Source: Bacilli bacterium
GTDB taxonomy: Bacteria; Bacillota_I; Bacilli_A; RFN20; CAG-826
Direction of reading: 5' to 3'
DNA length: 64,000 bases
NCBI GenBank assembly: GCA_024399115.1
Contig: JAKSHZ010000005.1
Location: 1,853 to 65,852, forward strand
This document shows positions 5,464 to 54,623 of this stretch, in pieces (position 1 is the stretch's first letter; every line of letters begins with the position of its first letter). The notes under the pieces are model-generated. The model did no database searches. It was not told the DNA's origin and worked only from the letters and a program-made list of their open reading frames with translations. The translations under genes and the position numbers were made by a program.

Positions 5464-6827
5464 TATAATTTCTTTCCTAATTCAACGATTGCTCTAGCAT
5501 AGATTGCCATACCCTTTTCGATATGTTCAATTTTGATTTGTTCTCCTGCTGAGTGCATCTTTGAATCCCAACCATCGAATTCCATACCATATGCAACAAC
5601 GTTTTCTGCTTCTTTTGCGTATGTACCACCACCAGTTGATAATGGGACAGCGTCTACATCACCAGTTTCATCAATGTAAGCTTTTAAAAGAGTGCTTACT
5701 AATGTTGAATCTTTTGGGAAATACAATAATGGAGAGCAACCGCCAAATGTTGTTTTGAATGGTTTTGAATTTTCTTCAATAATTGCTTTAATTTCTTCAA
5801 ATGTTGTTGAGTTGATGAATCTAAAGTTAATTGTTGCTTTAAGTTCACCATTTTCATAACTAAATAAACCGAGGTTTAAAGAGTTGTCATACATTTCATC
5901 ATTGTGCATGTTTGCTTTAATACCTTCGCCTCTAGTTCCGCTATATTTTTCTGCAAATAACTTTAAGTTAGGATTATCGTAATAATCACCTAAAGCTTTA
6001 ATAGCCATCATAGCAGCGTTCTTACCGACCCATGGAATACTACCATGAGCAGCAACGCCTGTGAAAGTTAATACGCATTTACCATCAACTTCACTTGCTT
6101 CGACGTCTTTTCCATATAATTCAGAAACGTAGCTAACAAATTTTTCGTCTTTAGCCATTTCAACAACGCACTTTTCAATAACTGAGTTAGAAGCAACGCC
6201 ACCCTTAATTGAGTAGACATTATCCATCTTAAAGCTATCAGTTACAAGGAATCCAAAGATACCCTTTTCTGCGAAAATTAATGGGAAACTACTGTCAGGA
6301 GAGAAGCCTAATGTAGGTTGTTTCTTTTTTAATTCATAGAAATAATGCATCATGCCTTCAGAAGTTGTTTCTTCAGCACCGCCAACTAAGAATCTAACTT
6401 GGTAATCACCGAGTTTTCCATTGTCTTTAAGAGCTTTTAAAGCGTAATAACAAGCAAGAAGAGGGCCTTTATCATCAGCAACACCACGACCAGTTAATAC
6501 GCCATCTTTTTCAACAACTTCAAATGGATCTTGGTCCCAGCCAGTTCCTTCTGGAACGACGTCTGCGTGAGCCATAATTGTGATATTCTTTTCGCCGCTT
6601 CCAATATTTGCTTCGACGATTTTATTGCCGTAGTTAGTGACATCAAAACCATCTTTTTTTGCTAATTCTTCGAAGAATTTAAGAGCTTCAGTAACCCCCT
6701 TACCACATGGATTATCTTTGTCCATTGTGTCTGGATCTCTGACAGAATCAATTGCGACAAATTTTCTTAAATTGTCTAATAATTCATCCATGTAAGGAGC
6801 AGTTAATAATTCATATTCAGTTTTCAT
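5463..6827 (-). CDS. pepV: M20-family dipeptidase (PepV-like, Xaa-His dipeptidase)
   Basis: 454 aa with HADVVPEG and GxADDKG M20 metal-binding motifs. Confidence 0.8.
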   Translation of the reverse strand: MKTEYELLTAPYMDELLDNLRKFVAIDSVRDPDTMDKDNPCGKGVTEALKFFEELAKKDGFDVTNYGNKIVEANIGSGEKNITIMAHADVVPEGTGWDQDPFEVVEKDGVLTGRGVADDKGPLLACYYALKALKDNGKLGDYQVRFLVGGAEETTSEGMMHYFYELKKKQPTLGFSPDSSFPLIFAEKGIFGFLVTDSFKMDNVYSIKGGVASNSVIEKCVVEMAKDEKFVSYVSELYGKDVEASEVDGKCVLTFTGVAAHGSIPWVGKNAAMMAIKALGDYYDNPNLKLFAEKYSGTRGEGIKANMHNDEMYDNSLNLGLFSYENGELKATINFRFINSTTFEEIKAIIEENSKPFKTTFGGCSPLLYFPKDSTLVSTLLKAYIDETGDVDAVPLSTGGGTYAKEAENVVAYGMEFDGWDSKMHSAGEQIKIEHIEKGMAIYARAIVELGKKL

Positions 6828-49862: not shown

Positions 49863-49954
49863 GGATATTATTTTAGAAGCAATTATGCTTATTTACAAAT
49901 TAAATATATATTGTTATATTTATTAAAGTTAAGGCTACGAAGGAAACAAGTAGA

Positions 49955-50170
49955 TTAATTGATTCTATCTAGAGAGCGTCCGGTTGGTGAAAGGACAACA
50001 GATAAATTAATTGAATACATTCTGGAGCTGCTACCTGAAACTAAGTAGGGATAGACGGGTTTGCCCGATATAGCTAGTTGTCAATAGACACATTAAGGAA
50101 TTTCTTGTGAGAGAAGTTCAAATTGAGGTGGTACCACGTTAATTCGTCCTCTATTAGAGGATTTTTTTAT
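49955..50170 (+). promoter_or_regulatory. T-box riboswitch leader (Tyr specifier UAC) controlling tyrS
   Basis: Stem I base AGAGAG...GTGAAAGG. UAC present at 50016-18 and 50032-34. Conserved T-box AATTGAGGTGGTACCACG at 50121-50138. Terminator TCCTCT-att-AGAGGA plus T7 at 50147-50168, immediately upstream of the tyrS SD. Confidence 0.8.
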
Positions 50171-50185
50171 ATCTTGGAGGTAATT

Positions 50186-51400
50186 ATGCAAATTTTCGAA
50201 GAATTACAAAGAAGAGGTTTAATCGCACAAGTTACAGATGAACCTGAAATTAAAGAATTGATCAACAACGGAGGAGCAAAATTCTATATCGGTTTTGATC
50301 CAACTGCTGATTCTTTACACGTTGGTCATTTTATGACCATCGTACTCATGAAAAGATTACAATTAGCAGGAAATAAACCAATCGTTCTTTTAGGTGGCGG
50401 AACTGGCTTAATCGGTGACCCATCAGGAAGAACTGATATGAGAAACGTTCTTTCTATCGAACAAGTTAACCACAACTGTGAATGTTTCAAAAAACAAATT
50501 GGTAAATTCATTGAATTTGGTGAAGACAAAGCAATTTGTGTTAACAACGGTGACTGGTTAAGAGACTTAAAGTACATTGAAGTACTTAGAGACGTAGGCG
50601 CTTGTTTCTCAGTTAACAAAATGTTATCTGCTGAATGTTACAAGCAAAGAATGGAAAGAGGTCTTTCATTCTTAGAATTCAACTACATGATTATGCAAAG
50701 CTATGACTTCTATAGATTACACGAAGACTATGGCTGTAACATGGAATTCGGTGGCGACGATCAATGGAGTAACATGCTCGGTGGTACTGAATTAATCAGA
50801 AAGAAAACTGGTAAAGACGCATACTGCTTAACTATCCCGCTATTAACAACTGCTGACGGCAAGAAAATGGGCAAGAGCGCTAAAGGTGCAGTCTGGCTCG
50901 ATAAAGATAAATATTCAGTCTATGATTTCTACCAATTCTGGAGAAATGTTGCTGATGCAGACGTTATTAAATTCATGAAAGTATTAACCTTCATTCCTAT
51001 CGAAGAAATCGAAGAAATGGAAAAATGGGACGGAAGTAGAATTAATGAATTAAAAGAAATGTTAGCTATGGAAATCACAACTATGGTCCACAGTAAAGAA
51101 GAAGCAGAAAAAGCACGCGATGCAGCTAAAGCTTTATTCTCAGGTGCTGGAGATGATTCAAATATGCCAACAAGCGAAATCACTATTGAAGGTGATGATG
51201 CTGGAATCCTTGATGTTCTTCTTGCAGCAAAATTAATCCCTTCAAAAGGCGAAGGAAGAAGATTAATTGAACAAGGTGGTATCTCAATGGATGACGAAAA
51301 AGTCACAAATCCAAATATGAGAATTTCTCGTGATCAATTAACAACAGGAATCAAAATTAGAAAAGGCAAAAAAGTTTTCCAAAGGATTATTGTTAAGTAA
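50186..51400 (+). CDS. tyrS: tyrosyl-tRNA synthetase
   Basis: HVGH (LHVGHFMT) and KMGKS motifs. Start at the ATG at 50186 with GGAGG upstream. The track's earlier start lies in the T-box leader. Confidence 0.95.
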   Translation: MQIFEELQRRGLIAQVTDEPEIKELINNGGAKFYIGFDPTADSLHVGHFMTIVLMKRLQLAGNKPIVLLGGGTGLIGDPSGRTDMRNVLSIEQVNHNCECFKKQIGKFIEFGEDKAICVNNGDWLRDLKYIEVLRDVGACFSVNKMLSAECYKQRMERGLSFLEFNYMIMQSYDFYRLHEDYGCNMEFGGDDQWSNMLGGTELIRKKTGKDAYCLTIPLLTTADGKKMGKSAKGAVWLDKDKYSVYDFYQFWRNVADADVIKFMKVLTFIPIEEIEEMEKWDGSRINELKEMLAMEITTMVHSKEEAEKARDAAKALFSGAGDDSNMPTSEITIEGDDAGILDVLLAAKLIPSKGEGRRLIEQGGISMDDEKVTNPNMRISRDQLTTGIKIRKGKKVFQRIIVK

Positions 51401-51425: not shown

Positions 51426-51455
51426 AAAAGTCGACTTAAATGTCGACTTTTTCTT
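51426..51455. terminator. bidirectional rho-independent terminator
   Basis: AGTCGAC-ttaaat-GTCGACT flanked by A6 and T5. Confidence 0.6.
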
Positions 51456-52212
51456 CGTATTTTAAGTTGTATCTTTCTATCAATTCGAATGCTCTCTCAA
51501 AGCATACTGTATCTAGCATTTCAGGTTTATGTGCGTCTGCACCTATTACAACTCTAACTCCATAAGTAGATGCGATTTTCCAGAATTCTTCATTAGGATA
51601 TCTCCATCTTGTAACGTCACCACTTCTTGTTTGACATAAGTTAATCTCTAAAGGGATATCATATTGAATTGCAGCTTTACATATTTGATGTGCCATCGAT
51701 TCGAACTCAGGGGTCCAATGATCTTCTAATAAGCAATATACATCTGGATGAGCTACATACTTGAATATACCTGATGCCATACCCTTAATTAATAGCTCAA
51801 TATACTTGGTTTCACTTTTAATAACATCTTCTGCGTACCATGTACAACTTGCGAACTCTCCGTTCTCAGTGAAATAAAAGTGTTGACCTAAAATAAGATA
51901 ATCTACTTTTTTAGTTGCTAACAATTCTTTATAAAACGAAGCGAATTCTTCGAAATATTCGCATTCTAAACCACAATGTATTGTGATTTGATCTTTATAT
52001 TTTTCTTGAAGAGATCTAATAGAAGCTAAATATCCTTCAAGTTCAGAATAGTCACCACGAATACCTTTTTGAGTCATTCCAGGAAGCATAACGTGATCAG
52101 AAAATCCTAAGACTTTATATCCATCATCAATAGCTCTTAAAACATACTCTTCATCTTCTCCAGAGGCATGGCCACATCTTTTTGTATGTGTATGGTAGTT
52201 ATACTTTAACAT
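51436..52212 (-). CDS. PHP-domain phosphoesterase (histidinol-phosphatase family)
   Basis: YHTHTKRCGHA N-terminal PHP motif; 258 aa. Confidence 0.65.
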   Translation of the reverse strand: MLKYNYHTHTKRCGHASGEDEEYVLRAIDDGYKVLGFSDHVMLPGMTQKGIRGDYSELEGYLASIRSLQEKYKDQITIHCGLECEYFEEFASFYKELLATKKVDYLILGQHFYFTENGEFASCTWYAEDVIKSETKYIELLIKGMASGIFKYVAHPDVYCLLEDHWTPEFESMAHQICKAAIQYDIPLEINLCQTRSGDVTRWRYPNEEFWKIASTYGVRVVIGADAHKPEMLDTVCFERAFELIERYNLKYEEKVDI

Positions 52213-53291
52213 ATAGATTTAGCCACCTTCTCAGCACTAGCGAAAGCCCACATTAAGTTAAAGCCTCCACATTTAGCATCAACATCCACCATTTCACCAA
52301 TAAAGTAGACTCCATTTTCGTGTTTGCTCTCTAGAGAATCACTTAAATCGTCTAATGATACTCCACCAGAAGAAACTTGTGAATTTTCAAATCCATATAA
52401 GCTCTTAAAAGTAAATTTAACACTATGGATATCTAGATTATTCTTAATTAAATACGATGAAAGTTTTTCATTTAAATACGAATTGTAATCATCTTTTGAA
52501 ATGCGCTCTTTTATCTCTGGAACGAAATCAACATTAAATGTAGTTGTTTCGTTGTGTAGGTTATACTTATTGATAACGAACGCCATATTGAAAATAACGA
52601 TACCACTAATTGAATCACTTCTAAATTGAACCTCTCCAAGTTCAGAAGTAACTTCTTTTCCGTTATCGAATAAAGTTACTTTAGCTTTAGCTCTTACCCC
52701 ATCTAGTTTATTGACATTTTCCCTAACTTTGATTGGGCAAAGTGAAGGAGATAATTTTTCAATTTTATAGTTATGGCTTTCCAAAATAGAGAAAATACTA
52801 CCATCACTTCCTAATTGTGGTGAGCTTTTACCACCACACGCAAAAATTAATTTATCGAGCTTATAATTTTTGCCAGAGACGCTTATTTCTTTTTTATTTG
52901 TATATGAAATAATCTTTGCATTTAAGACAACTTGAATGTCTAATTCGATTACCCTACAAATTAATTTCTCAGCAACTGTAGCAGCACTTAATGAATAAGG
53001 ATAATACAAACTGTCAATTTTTCTTGATTTAATCCCAATTGAATCAAAATACTTATCTAATTTCTCATGGTTAAATTCGTTAACGGTAGAAATAGCGAAT
53101 TTGTTATTATATGCATCAACAATTGGATCTGAATTCGCAAAATTGCATCTTCCATTACCAGTTGCATAAATCTTTTTTAGAAGTTTATCAGAACGTTCGA
53201 AAATAACTACATCATAATTTGGATGTAATTCTTTAATTCTAATTGCAGCAAATACGCCACTAGCTCCACCACCAATAATTCCGATTTTCAT
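52206..53291 (-). CDS. HI0933/BaiN-family FAD-dependent flavoprotein
   Basis: IIGGGASGVFAAIR dinucleotide-binding motif followed by GNGRCN; 361 aa. Confidence 0.7.
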   Translation of the reverse strand: MKIGIIGGGASGVFAAIRIKELHPNYDVVIFERSDKLLKKIYATGNGRCNFANSDPIVDAYNNKFAISTVNEFNHEKLDKYFDSIGIKSRKIDSLYYPYSLSAATVAEKLICRVIELDIQVVLNAKIISYTNKKEISVSGKNYKLDKLIFACGGKSSPQLGSDGSIFSILESHNYKIEKLSPSLCPIKVRENVNKLDGVRAKAKVTLFDNGKEVTSELGEVQFRSDSISGIVIFNMAFVINKYNLHNETTTFNVDFVPEIKERISKDDYNSYLNEKLSSYLIKNNLDIHSVKFTFKSLYGFENSQVSSGGVSLDDLSDSLESKHENGVYFIGEMVDVDAKCGGFNLMWAFASAEKVAKSIC

Positions 53292-53321
53292 ATTCTTATT
53301 ATCTCACATGTGCTTTGCACA

Positions 53322-54227
53322 TTACATAGATTTATCCAATTCCGTAAAATCATTTAAATTAATACTGCCTAAAACGTTTTCTATTACTTTGTTTGTATTA
53401 ATTCCCATCTTTGCCGTCTGATCCTTTAATTCTTTCAATAACTCACTATGCATTGATAGATATTTACTTATAAACGATGAAATAGCAGTAAATTCGTCGA
53501 ATGATACAAATGATGCCTTAGTGGCATTATCGACAATGTTTTCTAGAATCATAGCTACTCTTTTACTTTTCAAAGAAATTCTTTTGACACCTAGCACTAA
53601 TCTCTTAGGATTTTTGTAGCAAAATATACTCTTAGTTTCGTTTGATAAATCTAACAAAGCAATAACTTCTAGCCCTTTAAACTGAGACTTTGTGTAATCG
53701 ATTAACTCCATTGATGGATTGGAAATAACAACAACCTTATCTTTATTGTTTTCGAATATTTTTTGAAGAATTTTTCGTGTGAAAATTTCGTTATTATTTG
53801 AAAGAAAAATAAGATCAGAAATGTTAAAAATATTTTCATTAGAAGTCGCAGATAAAACTATACCATTTTCTTCAATAAATGTAGATATATCCCCTTGTAT
53901 AGCGTGATATTGGCCACTTTTTAAGGATTTTACTACATCATTATTTTCATCAAAAAATGTTACTTTATTTTTCTTTGCTAGAAGGGTTCCAAATGCTACG
54001 CTTTTTGAGTTAATTTCTACAACGCAAATGTTTTCATTTTTTAGATCTTTTCGAATAATATTTGTTGGCAATTTGGTTAATTTTGACTGAATTAATTCAT
54101 GGCGATAAGTCTTATTACTTTCTTCTGATAATTCATATCTTTTATAAGTTCTTAAAGGCATATTCAAAAGCTTTGAGACCTCTATTTGCGAATAACCTTT
54201 CTTTAATCTGATACTTTTTAAACTCAT
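53322..54227 (-). CDS. XRE-family HTH protein fused to an uncharacterised alpha/beta C-terminal domain
   Basis: N-terminal LKKGYSQIEVSKLLNMPLRTYKRYE HTH. The C-terminal 220 aa match no motif I recognise. Confidence 0.6.
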   Translation of the reverse strand: MSLKSIRLKKGYSQIEVSKLLNMPLRTYKRYELSEESNKTYRHELIQSKLTKLPTNIIRKDLKNENICVVEINSKSVAFGTLLAKKNKVTFFDENNDVVKSLKSGQYHAIQGDISTFIEENGIVLSATSNENIFNISDLIFLSNNNEIFTRKILQKIFENNKDKVVVISNPSMELIDYTKSQFKGLEVIALLDLSNETKSIFCYKNPKRLVLGVKRISLKSKRVAMILENIVDNATKASFVSFDEFTAISSFISKYLSMHSELLKELKDQTAKMGINTNKVIENVLGSINLNDFTELDKSM

Positions 54228-54371
54228 ATATTCATTCTATTCTTATTAATTACTAATATAAAGACAAAAGTGTCATTTTGGCACTATTAAGACTATTTAT
54301 TTCATTGTATATACTTGCATTTCAGTTATGATGTTCTCGTGGAAAGGACGTTAGGATATTACTTGAGACAG

Positions 54372-54623
54372 ATGCGCTTATTACGTGGTTATCCCCAAAC
54401 CCTAGTTTCCAAGACATTAAATATTCACAGTTCAACGCTTTCCAAGTATGAAAACGATTATCTCCTACCTAACGTCCACGTCCTTATTAATCTTTCTATT
54501 CTTTACAAAACAAGTGTAGATAAACTTATTGGACATAGCTACAAAAATAGCCCTAAAAAATTAGGGCATAAATTCTATAACGATATTGAATGTTCTTTAG
54601 AACAATTAGATAAACAAAGGTAA
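54372..54623 (+). CDS. small XRE-family HTH regulator
   Basis: LVSKTLNIHSSTLSKYEN HTH. The first in-frame ATG is at 54372; the track start is a TTG. No clear SD. Confidence 0.55.
   Translation: MRLLRGYPQTLVSKTLNIHSSTLSKYENDYLLPNVHVLINLSILYKTSVDKLIGHSYKNSPKKLGHKFYNDIECSLEQLDKQR

Follow-up and report, generated by a model that had tools for sequence, protein, structure and literature searches.

The locus considered here raises the question of what two adjacent, divergently oriented helix-turn-helix (HTH) genes are doing together, that is, whether they constitute a genetic switch or instead something else. It lies within a 64,000-nucleotide stretch of a Bacilli bacterium genome assembly (GCA_024399115.1, contig JAKSHZ010000005.1, positions 1,853 to 65,852), a stretch which in its entirety is here called the window. 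On the minus strand an open reading frame (ORF) at 53322-54227 encodes a 301-aa protein with an N-terminal HTH, and on the plus strand a second, smaller HTH ORF ends at 54623. A preliminary description, made from the letters of the DNA alone, saw in this a classic bistable-switch layout. The two ORFs do indeed face apart over a short region, and a genuine operator-like palindrome is found there. The 301-aa gene, however, is probably not part of a conserved bistable switch but instead an autoregulating pseudoenzyme derivative of an undescribed family of enzyme-repressor fusions. What has been computed in arriving at that reading is homology, orthology, truncation, loss of motifs, a difference in rate between domains, an open frame, and the conservation of both an operator and a -10 element.

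The 301-aa protein (P0001) forms a one-member cluster in the protein database, where it is named 'helix-turn-helix transcriptional regulator' and comes from a Bacilli metagenome-assembled genome (MAG). It can be divided into three parts, all encoded on the minus strand. Residues 1-60 (54048-54227) make up an XRE-type HTH, with PLRTYKRYE as its recognition helix, plus a linker helix; the HTH_3 match, over residues 3-33 (E 9.8e-5), reaches 22.8 bits, i.e., just under the cut-off of 23. Residues 61-294 (53346-54047) are a Rossmann domain followed by the helices with which the central (dimerisation) domain begins, both derived from UDP-glucose 6-dehydrogenase (UGDH), as indicated by NCBIfam, PDB, and Foldseek comparisons. 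There then is a 7-residue non-homologous tail, TELDKSM, plus the stop codon (53322-53345), which is the junction of a deletion of about 1.1 kb; tblastn homology to an intact relative, P0002, ends at 53346.

The C-terminal domain had been described as unrecognised. It is instead a known fold, one which belongs, by homology of both sequence and structure, to the UDP-glucose/GDP-mannose dehydrogenase family (PF03721/PF00984/PF03720), here in truncated and degenerate form. The NCBIfam model PRK15057 (UDP-glucose 6-dehydrogenase) thus matches residues 79-285 (E 8.9e-8), a sequence search of PDB finds the Klebsiella UGDH 3phl (E 5.6e-4), and the best Foldseek matches to an AlphaFold2 (AF2) model of the protein, with a predicted local distance difference test (pLDDT) of 86, are UGDHs as well (E 1e-13, template modelling, or TM, scores of 0.62-0.66). 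The same model and Foldseek comparison bear out that this domain is alpha/beta rather than TPR-like, such that the protein differs from Rgg/RRNPP regulators, which join an HTH to a TPR-like peptide-binding domain, in having a C-terminal fold of Rossmann type. The closest likeness is to Ugd/HasB enzymes (PDB 3PLR, 3PHL, 1DLI), with which homology extends over the Rossmann domain and into the beginning of the central helical one; versus these, the 301-aa protein adds the N-terminal HTH, has replaced both the glycine loop and the active site, and is truncated before the catalytic Cys. A defence or phage origin was also considered and dropped, as there are no PADLOC or PHROGs matches to the protein, and the locus as a whole is, as had been noted, devoid of surrounding phage genes (by PHROGs and by gene calls on a Logan contig).

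Might such a protein still be an enzyme? The UGDH homology and fold are detectable, as they would be in an active, shortened nucleotide-sugar dehydrogenase bearing a regulatory HTH at its N terminus, but that reading is effectively refuted by what the protein lacks. Residues 71-76 are EINSKS, where at least 90% of relatives possess the G-x-G-x-V-G loop that binds NAD, i.e., the GxGxxG motif. Lost too are PT, KST, PEFLRE, and the K and N of EAEAVKLFSN; these last are the active-site Lys and Asn of the central helix (K250 to S and N254 to S), with the catalytic role of both, as of the Cys within GGxCxPKD, taken from published UGDH structures (1DLI). Of 34 enzyme-part columns with a conservation of 90% or more in the fusions, 25 are lost, and this part of the protein also carries an 11-aa in-frame deletion. 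The protein then stops 7 residues past its last homologous position, just ahead of GGxCxPKD, and the UDP-sugar-binding C-terminal domain is missing, there being 301 residues versus the 420-461 of relatives. Consistent with these losses, no Pfam UDPG_MGDP_dh match is seen and the PRK15057 match scores 31.6 bits, far under the curated cut-off of 757. With glycine loop, active-site residues, Cys motif, and UDP-binding domain all gone, the protein is predicted to be catalytically dead, that is, a UGDH homologue which is not a functional member of the family and which cannot be an active dehydrogenase.

Complete versions of the same architecture do exist. A word-index search of 5.8 billion proteins, with the 301-aa protein as query, returned three matches, these being the protein itself along with HTH/complete-UGDH proteins of 430 and 449 aa, while an exhaustive HMMER run against 1.84 billion cluster representatives returned 31, among them about 15 full-length HTH-UGDH fusions (419-453 aa) whose alignment begins at residue 1. 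The resulting family (P0002-P0012, L001-L013, and L020, where P numbers are proteins and L numbers loci) consists of proteins of 420-461 aa from uncultured gut and rumen Bacilli, and all catalytic motifs are present, with GxGxVG, PT, KST, PEFLRE, EAEAVKLFSNxYLAxR, and GGYCLPKD kept in the alignment. Intact fusions and window copy have in common the HTH (PLRTYKRYE), the operator, and the leaderless spacing of the -10 element, and those of loci L001, L004, and L005 have in common with it chromosomal position as well; they differ from it in being of full length and in retaining every motif. For scanning of genomes, a 17-sequence N-terminal alignment proved too diverse, and an alignment of 4 sequences was used in its place. 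Two further short HTH-UGDH-like proteins were seen: P0014 (301 aa), whose sequence no longer resembles the family beyond about residue 230, as though through a frameshift, and P0015 (332 aa), which ends past the catalytic-Cys region. Both may be fragments or independent truncations. Neither HTH-UGDH fusions nor nucleotide-sugar trigger enzymes were found described in the searchable literature.

How the window copy came to be shorter can be seen by comparison with L001 (the contig of P0002), L004, and L005, the latter two being contigs of species-representative MAGs. In all three the gene order is ArsB-like, HTH-UGDH (430 aa), formate/nitrite transporter (FNT), HI0933, PHP, and tyrS, with the FNT gene on the opposite strand between the fusion gene and HI0933. 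The 301-aa gene is orthologous by position to those 430-aa fusions. Flanking proteins of the window are 66-93% identical to their counterparts at these loci versus 33-35% for the fusion protein; at the level of DNA the flanks are 78% identical and the promoter plus 5' end of the HTH 73%, with the body of the gene invisible to blastn. The window lacks the FNT gene together with the last approximately 130 codons of UGDH; at 53308, or by eye at about 53330, its DNA is again homologous to what lies ahead of HI0933 in L001. By this comparison about 1.1 kb, comprising the 3' end of UGDH along with FNT, was deleted specifically in this lineage, and it is because of that deletion that the 301-aa gene now adjoins HI0933 and PHP. 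JGI metagenome contigs yielded no other copies truncated in this manner, and one Logan contig, L003, being 100% identical to the window, is uninformative as a relative. Rfam found no meaningful structured RNA in the flanks of L001 and L002.

A gene from which catalysis has gone may itself be on its way out. That is, the 301-aa gene could be a recently inactivated relic, truncated, useless, and decaying, with its open frame and its intact HTH signifying merely that inactivation was recent. The loss of the catalytic machinery and of 25 conserved columns out of 34 is what such a relic would be expected to display, as too are a nonsynonymous divergence (dN) of 0.7 in the enzyme part, a truncated form which is a singleton without conserved relatives, and a final 15 residues that are predicted, from the AF2 model, to be disordered. 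The decay, however, is specific to one domain. Over residues 1-60 the identity of the window's protein to 12 outgroup fusions is 0.37 versus 0.38 for P0002, whereas over the enzyme part (residues 61-294) it is 0.20 versus, again, 0.38. Similarly, dN between window and relatives is 0.40-0.45 for the HTH and 0.68-0.72 for the enzyme part, as compared with 0.22-0.30 and 0.11-0.20, respectively, among the relatives themselves. Expressed as a ratio of the former comparison to the latter, this is 1.7 for the HTH and about 4 (4.2) for the enzyme part, with flanking genes at 1.4-2.5. The HTH, that is, is not accelerated, and 14 of the 15 HTH columns conserved in fusions are retained.

The reading frame, too, argues against decay. 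All indels of the 301-aa gene are in frame, and its coding frame contains 0 stops, versus 6-29 in each of the other five. When neutral drift was simulated from an intact orthologue, 240 codons stayed open in no more than 1.5e-4 of the simulations, and this already at a divergence of 0.2 substitutions per site, such that neutral divergence of the enzyme part without stops or frameshifts is improbable (p<=1.5e-4). Both the operator and the -10 element, considered below, are intact as well. By these measures residues 1-60 are under normal purifying selection, at the rate of the family. Because the HTH has not accelerated and the frame has stayed open despite enzyme-part divergence, ongoing selection is suggested, with the polypeptide probably selected as a DNA-binding protein having a relaxed, non-catalytic body. 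The gene's being a relic is accordingly viewed as unlikely.

What, then, would such a DNA-binding protein bind? A 17-bp putative operator, AGTGTCATTTTGGCACT, or AGTGCCAAAATGACACT as read on the gene strand, is found at 54269-54285, 41 nt upstream of the ATG of the 301-aa gene. It differs by one mismatch from a family palindrome, AGTGCCA-N3-TGGCACT, and is identical to that of L005. The preliminary description had already pointed to a semi-palindrome here, GTGTCAttttGGCAC, which does exist but at 54270-54284 rather than at about 54281-54295, i.e., with a shift of 11 nt. Within the window alone there is a single match to the operator at up to 3 mismatches versus 0.91 expected, which is the level of chance, and for a second palindrome, ATGTGC-ttt-GCACAT near the stop codon, there is 1 match at up to 2 mismatches versus 1.70 expected. 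Neither palindrome beats chance inside the window, and it is only by conservation across loci that the two can be told apart. The upstream one is kept in every orthologous or paralogous locus, whereas the one by the stop codon is not. Indeed, when up to 2 mismatches are allowed, all 13 of 13 HTH-UGDH loci, over 130 kb, possess a single AGTGCCA-N3-TGGCACT, at a distance from the ATG of either 19 or 34-41 nt, and the exact core, GTGCCA-N3-TGGCAC, is present in 11 of 59 fetched loci and not elsewhere within them.

The palindrome also is found apart from UGDH. In Clostridia MAGs it lies upstream of 155-aa HTH-nucleotidyltransferase (MNT) genes, which possess the same HTH (IPLRTYKRYE) but a different C-terminal domain. 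Because the palindrome in this manner follows the HTH across partner domains, it is assigned to the subfamily to which the large protein's HTH belongs rather than to the small XRE, and the HTH plus its operator looks to be a portable cassette. As for the sign of regulation, four loci (L006, L011, L013, and L020) have their operator across the -35 and the spacer, which is a repressing position. For the window's operator, repression is the likeliest sign.

Some particulars of these other loci can be added. The HTH-MNT genes (L014-L019, L021, L024, and L026; e.g., L016:5899-5943 and 5998-6465) have 1-2 palindromes at 52-87 nt upstream, possess a Shine-Dalgarno site, and are followed by a HEPN-like ORF. 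As members of HEPN-MNT-like modules (L014-L026) they thus resemble the 301-aa gene in HTH subfamily and in upstream AGTGCCA-N3-TGGCACT but differ from it in C-terminal domain, in Shine-Dalgarno-led mRNA, in usually having two copies of the operator, and in the HEPN-like neighbour. At L012:1542-2735 an HTH is instead fused to a CapD/Polysacc_synt_2 dehydratase, 3 kb upstream of the HTH-UGDH of that locus and within an FnlA/B/C-like set that includes a UDP-GlcNAc 2-epimerase; ahead of this fusion, at about L012:1467-1483, there is a variant of the palindrome, TATGCAAtaaTTGCACT.

A predicted promoter for the 301-aa gene is found between operator and start codon, at 54234-54262 on the minus strand, and consists of a -35 of TTTATA (54262-54257), a 17-nt spacer, and a -10 of TAGAAT (54239-54234), with 6 nt then remaining to the ATG. 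An alternative promoter-like site on the same strand, at 54255-54284, would have GTGCCA, one half-site of the operator, for its -35, followed by an 18-nt spacer and TATATT. The position of the -10 is conserved, with a -10-like hexamer at exactly -12 to -7 from the A of the ATG in 14 of 14 HTH-UGDH genes, 13 of them TAnnnT, versus 2.2% of all ATGs. Because the -10 is fixed in this way, transcription is expected to start upon the start codon itself, which indicates that the mRNAs of HTH-UGDH genes, that of the window included, are leaderless.

Transcripts without a leader may be rather frequent in this lineage, and 5 of 46 long ORFs of the window have TAnnnT at -12 to -7. HI0933-like genes display a -10-like hexamer at that same position, namely GATAAT in the window (53298-53303), TAATAT in L001 (2368-2373), and TAATAA in both L004 (8003-8008) and L005 (8649-8654). 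There is as well an exact 11-nt direct repeat, TATTCTTATTA (TAATAAGAATA on the minus strand), upstream of the starts of HI0933 (53291-53301) and of the 301-aa gene (54238-54248), though in AT-rich DNA this probably is chance.

The second HTH ORF can now be considered, and with it the idea of a switch. In that idea each of the two HTH proteins would repress the other, in the manner of cI and Cro, and together they would control the flavoprotein/PHP operon. The layout is suggestive, with the divergent ORFs separated by 135 nt (54228-54362) and with the operator found between promoter-like sites on both strands, that of the small gene (54287-54315, plus strand; TTAAGA, 17 nt, TATACT) adjoining the operator. 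The promoter scan, however, returned 9 sites versus 8.8 expected, i.e., matches at the level of shuffled DNA, such that the small gene's promoter is a weak candidate. The small ORF itself has a full HTH_3 domain (profile positions 1-55, residues 17-71 of a mechanically defined 102-aa ORF, E 1.5e-9, 38.1 bits versus a cut-off of 23). Of its three possible starts, TTG 54315 (102 aa), TTG 54363 (86 aa), and ATG 54372 (83 aa), the second is the best because the Pfam domain begins there and a Shine-Dalgarno-like AGGA lies 6 nt upstream (54353-54356), giving an 86-aa product from 54363-54623. An earlier assignment of 83 aa was therefore right as to the HTH but would cut off the beginning of helix 1. 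The ORF's GC content of 0.36 is coding-like, versus 0.23 for intergenic DNA.

Where the switch falls short is in conservation. The divergent small HTH gene is absent from L001, L004, L005, and ten other HTH-UGDH loci, that is, from 13 related loci. The C-terminal domain of the large protein turns out to be a known one, UGDH, but the pair of genes is not conserved as a core. There is only the one operator, and that palindrome goes with the HTH subfamily found in the large protein, whichever of several unrelated domains this HTH is joined to. The small ORF was left uncalled as a gene in the Logan contig, has generic repressor matches in PHROGs and PADLOC, and has no homologues as judged by word-index protein search, in JGI metagenome contigs, or in IMG/VR. 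Nor was a remnant of it supported in the relatives: a similarity seen by eye in their intergenic DNA failed in tblastn and also in local alignment against shuffles, where 20 of 300 or more shuffles did equally well or better. Phages lambda and 434, with which the comparison would be made, do resemble the locus in having two divergent HTH genes (cI and Cro) and one leaderless transcript but possess tripartite, shared operators, as compared with the window's single operator, lack of prophage context, non-conserved partner gene, and enzyme-derived large protein. A cI/Cro-like switch is for these reasons thought very unlikely, and by this evidence the small XRE does not complete a conserved switch. 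It is instead an unrelated orphan and may be a lineage-specific regulator. In its 3' tail the small ORF overlaps by 18 nt with the ArsB-like gene, at that gene's stop codon, and it takes in the gene's intrinsic-terminator hairpin (54550-54567, minus strand).

On its other side the 301-aa gene is followed, after a spacer of exactly 30 nt (53292-53321), by an HI0933-like flavoprotein gene of the aminoacetone-oxidase family (52206-53291, minus strand) and then by a PHP/HisJ-family phosphatase gene (51436-52212, minus strand), both as assigned by Pfam and NCBIfam. It had been suggested that the 301-aa protein may regulate these two genes. With no terminator-like site called within the spacer this is possible, and the two may be co-transcribed with the 301-aa gene, but the adjacency is a product of the lineage-specific deletion rather than of ancestral design.

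The second palindrome, ATGTGC-ttt-GCACAT, lies here as well, before the HI0933 start, at 53308-53322, which is 1 nt from where it had been placed (53307-53321) and which makes one of its bases part of the 301-aa gene's stop codon. A search for further copies of ATGTGC/GCACAT found none elsewhere in the window. One of its arms falls within an insertion of 11-13 nt that is missing from L001, L004, and L005, i.e., it is lineage-specific, and the corresponding RNA hairpin (-8.5 kcal/mol, z -1.5) is weak and without a U-tract. As a terminator or conserved operator the palindrome was rejected, given that no terminator is called and that it is absent from those three loci. Nor is it to be presumed a second copy of the upstream operator, with which it has GTGC...GCAC in common but a half-site spacing of 3 rather than 7 nt. 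On present evidence it is not considered functional. Farther along, a T-box leader (49928-50154, 115.8 bits) precedes tyrS (50186-51400), which is an ordinary arrangement.

The preferred reading, of an autoregulating pseudoenzyme, can be put together as follows. The ancestor would have possessed an HTH joined to a complete UGDH, a leaderless mRNA, and a promoter with a single 17-bp AGTGCCA-N3-TGGCACT. The approximately 1.1-kb deletion would then have taken the catalytic-Cys segment, the UDP-binding domain, and the FNT gene, with the leftover Rossmann and central part losing NAD-binding and catalytic residues even as HTH and operator were retained. The 301-aa protein presumably is still made and would dimerise via its retained central-domain helices, with the dimer binding the palindrome at 54269-54285 and thereby regulating, likely by repressing, its own promoter; the same protein may also control the HI0933-like and PHP genes 30 nt downstream. 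It would make no UDP-glucuronate and probably would be blind to UDP-sugar or NAD ligands.

Several points weigh against this reading. The divergence at synonymous sites (dS) is saturated, such that branch-specific dN/dS is only rough, and a gene of relaxed constraint that had died very recently would look alike. The AF2 model was built upon an alignment that included intact UGDHs, from which its fold is partly inherited. The operator of the window, like that of its close relatives, has its centre some 50 bp ahead of where transcription is inferred to begin, which is not the classic occluding position, and the GATAAT at -12 to -7 from the HI0933 ATG makes a promoter of that gene's own possible. 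The truncated state, lastly, is known only from this MAG or sample, i.e., as a singleton, which bears upon its conservation.

A broader proposal can be offered, albeit tentatively and with more doubt than attaches to the autoregulating pseudoenzyme as such. This is that the locus represents a transition from enzyme to regulator caught midway, with a non-catalytic, DNA-binding pseudoenzyme whose leaderless, autoregulated promoter was joined by deletion to a flavoprotein/phosphatase operon and which has an orphan XRE across its operator. The HTH along with AGTGCCA-N3-TGGCACT would in this case be a portable cassette, one that imparts self-regulation upon UGDH, CapD, and MNT antitoxins.

BirA, NadR, and PutA are bifunctional enzyme-repressors, or 'trigger enzymes'. 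The intact HTH-UGDH family resembles these in joining a DNA-binding domain to a metabolic enzyme and in having an operator at the gene's own promoter, and it likely follows the same logic; the 301-aa protein, for its part, would work most like the DNA-binding half of such a fusion. Fold, HTH class, and pathway nevertheless differ, the window copy has lost its enzyme half, and the likeness is one of architecture and operator conservation only.

What had been an unknown sensor domain is in this analysis reclassified as a dead enzyme, and what is revealed along with it is a small, apparently undescribed family of nucleotide-sugar enzymes that carry their own HTH, operator, and leaderless promoter. 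The pairing of operator and HTH is precise enough that it could be tested directly using short oligonucleotides. Should the intact fusions indeed bind DNA as governed by UDP-sugars or NAD(H), then they would represent a new class of trigger enzyme, in gut Bacilli, tying the supply of precursors of cell-surface polysaccharide to transcription, and the window copy would show such an enzyme-repressor turning into a plain regulator.

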